From a virus (lineage: Duplodnaviria; Heunggongvirae; Uroviricota; Caudoviricetes): a stretch of 43,570 nucleotides of DNA. A program made the position numbers. This document shows positions 36,001 through 39,000 of this stretch, piece after piece. The first letter of the stretch is position 1, and each line of letters begins with the position of its first letter. Location: IMG/VR virus record IMGVR_UViG_2522572023_000011. One strand, written 5' to 3'.

Positions 36001-39000
36001 TCATCATTTGCTCATGGTTTCCACGTACAGCTCTGAACCAGGGGAATGTGATTAATTCCAGGCATTCTACGTTCTCTGTACCGCGATCAACCAAATCGCC
36101 CACCGAGATAAGCAGGTCTTTTTTGGTGTCGAATCCTATCGTCTCCAGTTTTTTCATCAGGTTCGTGTAGCATCCGTGCAGATCGCCAACTACCCAAATA
36201 TTTCGGTATTTGCTGCCATCAATTCTTTCGTAGATATTCATGCAACCTCACTTCTGCTGTTTCGCAGTTTTTTAAGTTTCTGTTGATACTCCGCCTTGAT
36301 GGCCCTGCACTCTTCGACAGTCCAGCGATAGCGGTTATGGTTTGATTCGATTTCCTCTACTGCTTCCTGCCCGATGCGGCTAATCAGTTCGACACGATAC
36401 GGAACGAGATTTCCGCTTTTGTGCTGGTTGCACACCACGCATTGCTTGTGAATATTGCGTTCATCAAATCGGAGTTGAGGTGCCGCAGCAGTTGTCCGGT
36501 AATGTCCGGCATCCCACTGAGCAGACGTGAGCGTTCCGCACGAGATACATGGTAAGTCGCGGTCTCTTTCTCTGATGAAGGCGTTTACGGCTTGTTGGGC
36601 TTGTTTAATCCAGTAACTGCGGGGCTTTAAGGCGAGTTTTCGAATCTTAAGTTTATCTTTCTGTTTCTGCTCCTCTCGTCGTCGTTTCTTCTCTGCTGCC
36701 TTTTCTGCCTTTTCCGCTTTTTCGCGTTCTTTACTTCGTCGTTCGAGTGCTATCTTGGTTCCACAAATCTCATTACACCAATATTGATTTTGATATTTTG
36801 GTATAAACCATTCATTGCAACATTTACATTTCCTTCGATAGATTCGCATAAGTGCTCCTTTCGTTGCCGGAAAAATCACCGTAATACTTATCTCGGGCTT
36901 CTTCAGCAACTAGTACCGCTAACTCCAGATCATCAAAGCATCCGAAGTGTTTACTCTTGCCATGGAATCCTAGCCTAACATTCCATTTTTTCTGTCGTTT
37001 GTGCCAAGTAACCCCTCTGCAACCTGATTTGCTATTCTTTCGGATCCTTATATTTCTTGAATTTTCTATTGGCAGGCATTCTCTTAAATTTTCTGGCCTA
37101 TTGTCGGTCCTAATTCCATTAACGTGGTCAATTTGACCAGCAGGCCAACGATTATGAGTTATGTAAAAAACTAAGACGTGAGTTTTATATCTACGCCCAT
37201 CTATCATGATCATTGAATAACCGTTGGAATCAAAAGCTCCAGCAACACTATTTAATGCTATCCTTCCCTGAGTGGGAACTTTCCATCTAAATACCCCGGT
37301 AGATTTATCGAAACTTAGTAACTCAAATATCCTTTTAACAGTTAAATCTTCTCTTTTACGGTTACATCGTCTTCGCGCTGGTTTAGCCATCGCCTTCTTC
37401 CTCCGTAATGGTTTTCTGAATTTGGCCACCTGAACAGAGCTCACCAAAGCTATGGATGTCGGTATTTCCACAATACCAAGATGGCGAAAATAACTGCATG
37501 ATAAGCCTCAGGGAAAAGGGAAGACACTACCCCCGATAATTCAGAAACAAATCGAAATACATGAACTAAAGAAAAAATCACAACAAATAGAAATAGAAAT
37601 AGAAATAGAAATAGAAATATTAAAACAGACCACCACATTCCTGATGTCATACTCACTAAACAATTTTTCGACAACATGGTAGCTCATAGCACGTTATCGT
37701 GTAGACACCCTCTGCTACGTATTCGGTGTTCAGTGCAATATCTACAAATACTGGAAAAATCTAAAATCGAGGCAAGTTTTTAGTGATAACTATAGTTAGA
37801 CTATATTGACGACCTGATGTGCTGTATGTAATAACTAACAAAAAATATTTTCCATGGGGTTTTTTATTTTAATGAAATGCAAAATATTTTTATCAATAGT
37901 TAGTATTATGGAAAACCATTAATTCAGGAGGAAACTTGATTCCAAATTCAACTTCAAATAAAGGTTATGTATGCATTGACATGCAGTGTTCGTCAACCTC
38001 TGAACCAACAGCTTCTACCTCCAGCAACCGGAGTATTAAATTAGCCGCTTCCACAAATGTATATCCGATAACAAGAAACGACTCCGAGCTCACTCTGAAC
38101 GATTTTCTTGATAATAGCTCTTCTACGTCATCATTGGACTACATTAATGAATTGGGTTCTCAACTGACGTTAAATGATTTTCTTGACAACATAAAGACAA
38201 ATGAGGTGGATAGAACATGTACGGATGTGGTAATTAATATCCCACAAGAGATACAAACAAATACACAGGAAAATGATTTGTTATTATCCGATAAAAATAA
38301 TTCAATATGCATTGAAATCGATGAAAGAATTACAAAAATCCTAACATGCAAGCAAAAATATCAACTGGACAGCATCATTCATGAAATTATACCAAAAGAG
38401 AATGAGAGTGCAGAAACTGTTCTCCATCTTATGAGAGTTCTGAACGATCAATATCATCAGGTATATAATCAGTCAGGATGTTTTTATAAAGCCTATATGG
38501 CCATACACAATAAAATCGAACAGATACTTCCATATGCGTTCAGAGCCGGAGGCGGAATCAGCATTCACTTGCTCATACAGGCATTATTTTTTAATGGCGA
38601 CTATAACAAATCACCTTCACAGTCTCAACAACCATCTTTATATACATCACCTTCTCCAACAATAAATACAGAAGCATTCTTAAGTAATGTATTATCACTA
38701 GATATAACCCAGGTACGCATACTTGGTGATTTACTATCAGCAACTTTATTTCATGCACCAACAATATTCTATCAATATCCTAAACTAATAGATGAAGTTA
38801 AGTATTGTATAAGTAATAAAAAATAACAGGTTCGGTTATAGCACGATTTACTCTATGTTTAACAAGTACATTACTAACCATGTCACCACTGTTAATGCTT
38901 AATGGAGCAGTTAAAACAGGTAGCATAGTAAGAACTATAGGTAGGGGAGTGAGTTATGCTGATATACCATTGGCCTTAGCTATATTAGGTGACTCATGGT

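Follow-up and report, generated by a model that had tools for sequence, protein, structure and literature searches.

A probable HNH–AP2 homing-endonuclease cassette inside the 5′ end of ninG in lambdoid prophages, with a captured and a replacement ninG start

The window analysed here, a stretch of 43,570 nucleotides of DNA from a virus of the class Caudoviricetes (IMG/VR record IMGVR_UViG_2522572023_000011), carries an HNH endonuclease gene at the 5′ end of ninG (Rap). The coding strand of the HNH gene, of ninG and of the neighbouring genes under study is the minus strand, and positions are those of the window unless another locus is named. From the sequence, we consider it probable that the HNH gene belongs to a free-standing homing-endonuclease cassette, I-HmuI-like and with a C-terminal AP2 domain, which is lodged inside the 5′ end of ninG. 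Most likely, this cassette carries a version of its own target that is predicted to be immune to cleavage. The endonuclease is predicted to be translated from the ribosome-binding site and ATG of ninG itself, as a fusion to NinG residues 1–9. A replacement copy of the ninG 5′ end joins the resident gene in frame, and full-length NinG is predicted to be still made. The arrangement is a neat and fairly ordinary example of the way in which selfish genes enter phages and leave them intact, and holds no surprise for a specialist.

The HNH open reading frame (ORF; 36824–37390, minus strand) was identified in the ORF list and by its Pfam matches to HNH_3 and AP2. It runs from an ATG at 37390 to a TAA at 36824–36826 and encodes a protein of 188 amino acids (aa) that begins MAKPARRRCNRKRED. 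Its first 29 nucleotides (37362–37390, minus strand), which comprise the ATG, eight further codons and two nucleotides and encode MAKPARRRC, are the captured original start of ninG. This sequence, ATGGCTAAACCAGCGCGAAGACGATGTAA, is identical to lambda-type ninG at 29 of 29 positions, after which alignments with HK630, 2B8 and E. coli 2015C-4136 diverge completely. The left junction is thereby placed after ...CGATGTAA, that is, after nucleotide 29 of lambda-type ninG. A preliminary description of this DNA had likened the N terminus of the HNH protein to a lambda NinG start given as MAKPARR. This start is correct: in phage lambda (KT232076), as in HK630, the NinG sequence opens with MAKPARRRCKNDECREWF (MAKPARRRC), and an identity of 29 nucleotides out of 29 is not a matter of chance. 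The 13 nucleotides that precede the ATG (the ninF 3′ end and the ribosome-binding region) show at most one difference from HNH-less alleles, and a GGAGGA ribosome-binding site is located 8 nucleotides before the ATG. In alleles that retain ninF, its stop codon and the HNH ATG overlap (ATGGCTAA), in exactly the way that the ninF stop and the ninG ATG do in lambda.

These features bear on the possibility that the likeness to NinG is coincidental or an annotation artefact, and that the true start of the HNH gene lies elsewhere, for example at a GTG at 37471 (giving a protein of 215 aa). The frame is indeed open upstream to this GTG in the window, and one pipeline called the 215-aa product. However, the match to lambda-type ninG takes in all 29 nucleotides together with the ribosome-binding region, the GGAGGA is suitably placed for the ATG, and in ninF-retaining alleles the coding sequence of ninF occupies the region before the ATG, with its stop overlapping the latter. 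We therefore regard a start elsewhere as highly improbable.

Immediately downstream of the captured start is a foreign cassette of 596 bp (36766–37361, minus strand), composed of the body of the HNH gene, a new Shine–Dalgarno sequence, an ATG and a divergent ninG 5′ end. Its 596 nucleotides stand in for 64 nucleotides of lambda-type ninG. The replacement ninG 5′ end (36766–36849, minus strand) is 28 codons long and homologous to the lambda type, with the Cys/Trp pattern (...QYWC...C) retained, and its nucleotide identity to the lambda type is about 53%, compared with 97–98% for the rest of ninG. The new Shine–Dalgarno sequence, AAGGAG (36855–36860, minus strand), is located inside the coding tail of the HNH gene. 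As the preliminary description had stated, the HNH gene overlaps the first 26 bp of ninG (36824–36849, minus strand), the HNH stop being the TAA within TGT-AAA (Cys-Lys) of ninG. The same geometry is seen in phage Emek, where the ninF stop is in TGTAA, 26 nucleotides into ninG; the overlap may have been inherited from the gene arrangement of the donor.

Identity to HNH-less alleles resumes abruptly at TGTGGAACC, which directly follows the right junction. The resumption point, TGTGGAACCAAGATAGC (Cys-Gly-Thr-Lys), corresponds to codon 32 of lambda NinG and to codon 29 here. Beyond it, the resident ninG body (36238–36765, minus strand) is 99.7% identical to an HNH-less allele. The whole of ninG (36238–36849, minus strand, with its ATG at 36849) encodes 203 aa, of which residues 4–197 match positions 5–192 of the 193-position Pfam profile NinG (PF05766; 277.8 bits, E = 6e-83). 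The match is thus to the full-length profile, including the N-terminal Cys-rich segment. The replacement ninG 5′ piece has a G+C content of 28% and the HNH body one of 39%; outside the cassette, the values are 52% for the captured start, 49% for the ninG body and 45–51% for the two downstream genes. Because these steps coincide with the junctions, the HNH gene appears to have been imported as a single unit with the new start of ninG.

The preliminary description had read this region as an endonuclease gene that inserted into ninG, captured its start and left ninG with a new one, and had observed that ninG here begins differently from that of lambda. The different beginning is the divergent 28-codon N terminus, and alignment with lambda-type and HNH-less relatives, which that description had called for, resolves the insertion as a foreign block after nucleotide 29 of ninG. 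The capture of the start holds at the level of the sequence, whereas homing and cleavage are what we infer from it. Two points refine that account: 64 nucleotides of the original gene were replaced and not merely displaced, and the new start was not improvised but imported, as a diverged, low-G+C homologous copy of 28 codons.

The replacement 5′ end was encountered only in company with the HNH gene. The sequences searched were those of 50,697 phage records and of 5,426 complete genomes of E. coli. Among the phage records, tblastn found the divergent NinG N terminus only in SH2026Stx1 and AU6Stx1; these two phages, both HNH-positive, are also the only carriers (in four records) of the HNH gene among 425 matching phage records. 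In E. coli, 538 of the 5,426 genomes have the divergent ninG 5′ piece, and in 532 of the 538 it directly adjoins the HNH gene. Three of the six non-contiguous genomes were traced, and at least three of the six (PK8241, ERL04-3476 and 27_141091) result from insertion sequence (IS) elements of the IS3 family that landed inside or between the two genes; in both IS-interrupted genomes that were checked for it, an annotated HNH gene lies alongside. An HNH-less allele with the divergent N terminus, which the preliminary description had named as one of two observations that would overturn it (the other being a lambda NinG start different from MAKPARR), was found neither among the traced cases nor elsewhere in the phage records and E. 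coli genomes. The protein collections likewise yielded no other source of this N terminus: queries of 33–40 residues against a word index of 5.8 billion proteins, and an exhaustive HMMER search of 1.84 billion representatives, returned no donor lineage, and the matches consisted only of fragments of the same allele or of unrelated Cys-rich repeat proteins. The IS3-family elements are IS1203-like, and the one in PK8241 (positions 3148–4361 of locus L007) alters the C-terminal tail of the HNH protein.

Filled and empty versions of the site both occur in E. coli, and the distribution is sporadic, with 532 HNH-positive genomes compared with 925 that have an uninterrupted lambda-type ninF–ninG junction. 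The region in the window is identical to that in a prophage of E. coli O145:H28 RM12761, and an intact ninF–HNH–ninG order is found in E. coli E21845/O/A, ETEC1703 and PK8241 and in a prophage of Salmonella Infantis. In E. coli O157:H7 Z1834, two degraded prophages (positions 5293–6445 of locus L020 and 1015–1798 of locus L021) carry one version each, one of them HNH-positive and the other HNH-less with lambda-type ninG. On the right side of the junction, a single mismatch in 1246 nucleotides separates these two copies, and the window differs from the Z1834 HNH-less copy by 4 mismatches in the same 1246 nucleotides. Owing to this near-isogenic empty site, the right boundary of the cassette is exact to the nucleotide. 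The Z1834 pair suggests a recent exchange or gene conversion between resident prophages, ending at the cassette boundary. Overall, the cassette is polymorphic for presence and absence at one defined site, with sharp junctions and with right flanks that are 99.7–99.9% identical.

The protein encoded by the cassette has the domains of a phage homing endonuclease. Pfam places HNH_3 (PF13392) at residues 68–107 with 42.7 bits against a cut-off of 24.8 (E = 4e-11), and gives a weak, sub-threshold match to AP2 (22.1 bits against a gathering score of 33.3, E = 2e-4). The catalytic D-H...N...N residues (D88, H89, N101 and N110) are invariant in an alignment with 10 homologues and unchanged in the E21845, PK8241 and Salmonella copies. 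Compared with these homologues, the HNH protein has about 10 extra residues at its N terminus and about 11 at its C terminus. In an AlphaFold2 model (mean predicted local distance difference test score (pLDDT) of 80), residues ~12–175 are confidently modelled, whereas residues 1–11 and 176–188 have pLDDT values below 50. Since both ends are absent in the homologues and score below 50, we place the captured NinG residues and the C-terminal tail outside the fold. The protein is accordingly made up of residues 1–9 derived from ninG, a conserved fold at ~12–175 and a tail, residues 176–188, that enters ninG.

Foldseek returned I-HmuI (1u3e) as the top match of the model, with a probability of 1.00 but an E value of only 0.017 and 18% identity over 99 aligned columns. 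The C-terminal domain of the model superposes on the AP2 domains of 1gcc, 7et4 and 7et5 with root-mean-square deviations of 1.0–1.7 Å over 48–53 columns. AlphaFold2 and Foldseek together therefore describe an HNH core flanked by DNA-binding modules, in an I-HmuI-like fold with a C-terminal AP2 fold. A direct sequence search against solved structures gave a sole, marginal match, to the AP2 domain of WRI1 (E = 0.19), and was less informative than the comparison of folds. Relatives of the HNH protein are encoded in more than 3,000 phage records, mostly annotated as HNH or homing endonucleases, and the gene itself is already labelled ‘HNH endonuclease’ in RefSeq and in two phage records. Outside its own cluster of at least 90% identity, which has 464 member sequences, relatives are at most 47% identical, and no intermediates between 90% and 47% identity were found. 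A scan of one genome per species recovered only a 39% match, in a metagenome-assembled genome of the Planctomycetota, and not the source of the cassette.

We also considered a terminase-associated HNH protein, of the kind represented by HK97 gp74; this was ruled out by the position in the nin region, by membership of another Pfam family and by the sporadic distribution. Separately, Stx2a_WGPS4 (positions 1968–2579 of locus L017) contains a free-standing HNH gene of the same family, 38% identical, after a dnaB-like replication gene. Lambdoid Shiga toxin (Stx) phages therefore host this HNH family at more than one site.

At the levels of sequence and population, the features described above fit a homing endonuclease gene, from which we infer cleavage and biased inheritance. 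We propose that when HNH-positive and HNH-less lambdoid phages replicate together, upon induction or co-infection, the enzyme would cut the 5′ region of lambda-type ninG, and that the cut would fall in the stretch that is replaced in the HNH-positive genome. In every filled allele, the 64 nucleotides next to the insertion point are replaced by the ~53%-identical version, and the HNH-positive allele would be immune for this reason. The break would then be repaired from the HNH-positive copy, using homology in ninF and the first 29 nucleotides of ninG on one side and in the ninG body on the other. In this way the cassette would be copied in by intronless homing, and the co-converted tract would be very short.

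The cassette probably owes its founding to a one-sided, illegitimate repair of a double-strand break. The donor would have been foreign and AT-rich, with the arrangement HNH–ninG′; the right end of a broken lambda-type ninG would have invaded its conserved ninG body, and synthesis would have copied the 5′ end of ninG′ and the HNH gene. The left end (terminating in ...GATGTAA) would have been joined within the first codons of the incoming HNH gene. Such an event would leave two ninG starts, one resident and one imported, and in-frame products would have been retained because the enzyme stays expressed. The left junction would thus mark or adjoin the cleavage site. As the searches found no donor lineage, this founding event is reconstructed, not observed. 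In T4, one-sided homing with illegitimate junctions at microhomologies has been documented (PMC2988022), and, as summarized in the same source, Parker, Belisle and Belfort (1999) obtained one-sided homing in the laboratory with the T4 td intron. One-sided homing as presented in that summary predicts a homologous crossover on one side, a microhomology junction on the other and partial duplication of the target gene, which corresponds exactly to the present structure, except that here the event is natural and only reconstructed.

The distribution of the cassette across genetic backgrounds is that of a mobile element. Across four backgrounds (the window, SH2026Stx1, E21845 and PK8241), it is 98.5–100% identical, with a ninG 5′ piece that is 100% identical and HNH copies that differ at 0–8 of 541 nucleotides. 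The adjoining ninG bodies are 95.6–98.1% identical, and ninF, where present, 92.5%. In the identity matrix, the ninG bodies of HNH-positive alleles do not group together: that of the window is nearest to HNH-less 2B8 (98.4%) and that of E21845 to HNH-less HK630 (98.8%), and the two are 96.1% identical to each other. The copy in the Salmonella Infantis prophage is ~99% identical. Upstream, the neighbours of the cassette are ninF, one of several AT-rich blocks of plus-strand genes or an IS30 remnant; downstream, they are ninH or a phosphatase gene followed by different Q types, in the window a NinI-like phosphatase and a lambda-type Q antiterminator. The same element is therefore found on different backgrounds, with a history incongruent with that of its host gene, a pattern that homing predicts and that ordinary recombination could also give.

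Ordinary recombination is central to a different explanation, in which the HNH gene is a passive passenger that entered once by an illegitimate event and was subsequently shuffled, the enzyme being inactive or having no role in the spread. Several observations weigh against homing and, in part, speak for such a passenger. The first ~90 nucleotides of ninG are a mosaic hot spot even among HNH-less phages. They fall into four allele classes (lambda, Emek, ES18/H-19B and the present one) that are 52–79% identical, compared with 88–98% identity in the remainder of ninG across the same classes, and the common mosaic boundary lies near the CGTK/ALERR codons. The ninF 3′ end is likewise a general mosaic joint in different phages, followed by ninG, by a KilAC antirepressor gene (in many prophages) or by other genes. 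Spread of the cassette across backbones could accordingly have come from ordinary homologous recombination among mosaic lambdoid phages. That IS elements have landed inside or between the two genes, as they have in at least three genomes, is what is expected of dispensable DNA.

The Z1834 chromosome adds to these observations. HNH-positive and HNH-less lambda-type alleles stably coexist in it, and the enzyme is therefore not converting the empty site in lysogens, in the repressed state. Such coexistence is expected if the nin operon is repressed and is equally compatible with an inactive enzyme. All copies are at least 98.5% identical, too alike for purifying selection to be gauged from the ratio of non-synonymous to synonymous substitution rates (dN/dS), and no donor was found that has an HNH gene with its own start or the divergent NinG N terminus alone.

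Four lines of evidence nevertheless argue against a passive passenger. Every copy read retains its catalytic residues and both of its DNA-binding modules intact. Identity among copies is higher for the cassette than for the backbones in which it sits. The sharp right boundary, with the single mismatch beyond it in Z1834, speaks for a recent and localized transfer of exactly this block. Finally, the family to which the protein belongs is a classic family of phage homing endonucleases. On balance, we regard a passenger as rather unlikely and favour a homing cassette.

The variability at the 5′ end of ninG admits a more far-reaching version of the homing proposal, which we put forward as a tentative possibility and would not ourselves bet on. 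The cassette might be a natural ‘home-and-rescue’ drive, which would cut within the first ~30 codons of lambda-type ninG, at a break marked by the left junction (...GATGTAA), and carry a recoded, immune copy of them, with ninG staying functional; the hypervariability of the ~90 nucleotides would then be the footprint of repeated attack and escape. ES18 and STEC299, too, have nuclease genes at the boundary between ninF and ninG. In E. coli STEC299 (positions 1994–2503 of locus L019), a NUMOD4-HNH gene starts at the usual position of the ninG ATG and is followed by rusA, not ninG. In phage ES18 (positions 467–685 of locus L010), gp68, a 72-aa ORF annotated ‘endonuclease’, is located between ninF and ninG; a Pfam search with gp68 gave no match. 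Both resemble the present gene in occupying the ninF–ninG boundary, but the proteins are unrelated to it and neither has captured ninG codons.

The position of the gene also raises the question of whether the nuclease has been domesticated and is kept for a benefit, either by excluding competing lambdoid phages through cutting of their nin region or by working with NinG/Rap in recombination. Within the nin recombination cluster, it lies between ninF and ninG with translational coupling, it is prevalent in prophages of enterohaemorrhagic E. coli (EHEC; 532 genomes), and marker exclusion driven by endonucleases is known in T-even and HMU phages (PMC2988022). However, its distribution is patchy even among near-identical nin regions, the Z1834 copy sits in a heavily degraded, IS-ridden prophage remnant, and adjacency is all that ties the protein to NinG. 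Exclusion of competitors is, moreover, mechanistically the same as homing, and differs from it more in emphasis than in mechanism. We consider domestication improbable and retain a homing cassette as the more probable explanation.

The closest parallels are the seg and mob genes of the T-even phages (SegF, SegG and MobE). The free-standing endonuclease genes of T4 overlap and are translationally coupled with their neighbours, and show co-conversion of flanks (PMC2988022). As in those phages, a stand-alone endonuclease gene has lodged in or between conserved phage genes, with overlaps and translational coupling to its neighbours, and would be inherited with a short co-conversion tract; the divergent flank in the endonuclease-positive genome would be an immune version of the target (PMC2988022). 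The present case differs from the seg and mob genes in three respects: it is found in temperate lambdoid prophages, of E. coli and Salmonella; the first 9 codons of the neighbouring gene form an in-frame start to the HNH gene, which brings along a complete replacement 5′ end for that neighbour; and the activity of the enzyme is putative. I-HmuI of Bacillus phage SPO1 (1u3e) shares an N-terminal, β-rich DNA-binding part and an HNH (H-N-N) core, but is an intron-encoded nicking enzyme whose C-terminal domain is a helix-turn-helix and not AP2.

Magnani et al. are said to have proposed, in Plant Cell in 2004, that HNH-AP2 endonucleases of phages and cyanobacteria were the source of the plant AP2/ERF domain. 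The present protein resembles the HNH-AP2 endonucleases in its two-domain architecture and in the superposition of its C-terminal domain on the AP2 domains of AtERF1 and TEM1 (1.0–1.7 Å), and differs in that its AP2 match is sub-threshold and that its relatives outside the cluster are so distant (at most 47% identical). A literature search on ninG or ninF with HNH or homing found no description of start capture combined with a replacement N terminus, a negative that is weakened by the clash between NinG and the surname Ning.

To our knowledge, work on homing endonucleases has concerned virulent phages almost exclusively (T4, SPO1 and T7-like phages). The cassette described here sits in the nin region of temperate lambdoid prophages, including Shiga-toxin phages, and was found in about 10% of the complete E. 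coli genomes searched. Should the enzyme prove active, mosaicism in EHEC phages would have a directed source immediately beside the Q antiterminator and the stx region, and the cassette would be a clean natural case of a selfish gene that spares its host gene by means of a borrowed start and an immune replacement. The protein is also a candidate for a new site-specific nuclease or nickase, one that has an AP2 module for recognition. Because nearly isogenic filled and empty alleles are available, even within one O157:H7 chromosome, the hypothesis is cheap to test.

Upstream of the HNH gene, the window has features that go beyond the preliminary description: ninF has since been lost, and an AT-rich block with two plus-strand ORFs lies in this direction. 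Only ~13–16 nucleotides of the ninF 3′ end are left (37391 to ~37406). This remnant (37391–37406, minus strand) carries the GGAGGA used by the HNH ORF, and homology to alleles in a ninF context begins at ~37403. A chimeric ORF of 38 aa (37383–37499, minus strand) ends in EEEGDG followed by a stop, the remnant of the NinF C terminus (NinF proteins end in EEEDDG). Its stop overlaps the HNH ATG, and it is annotated as a hypothetical protein in SH2026Stx1. Through this ORF, translational coupling to the HNH start may have been preserved despite the loss of ninF. A search of the minus strand for a promoter-like site for the cassette, its own promoter or terminator being considered, found none. At the left junction, positions 37332–37372 form an imperfect 20-bp tandem (2.0 copies, 80% match; AGACGATGTAACCGTAAAAG and AGAAGATTTAACTGTTAAAAG on the minus strand), which may be a microhomology scar of the founding event or may be due to chance.

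Within the ninG body, a 9-bp tandem at 36696–36723 (CTGCCTTTT, 3.1 copies) encodes an (AEK)n stretch. Alleles of ninG differ by one 9-bp unit: NinG is 203 aa long in the window, and the E21845, O111 and Salmonella versions have 200 aa.

The AT-rich block (37408–40300, 34–37% G+C) lies between ninE and the HNH gene, in place of ninF and ninX. Its two plus-strand ORFs, 37936–38826 (296 aa) and 38880–39707 (275 aa), had no Pfam matches. In relatives, the same slot holds plus-strand ORFs of 933 bp and 828 bp (O111:H8) or a single ORF of 1773 bp (FORC_042 and SH2026Stx1), and the block looks like an exchangeable ‘moron’ slot. The megablast match between the window and SH2026Stx1 is split into two pieces. 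Finally, a perfect hexanucleotide microsatellite, (AAATAG) in 5.8 copies, is located at 37585–37619 in the AT-rich region upstream of the HNH gene.

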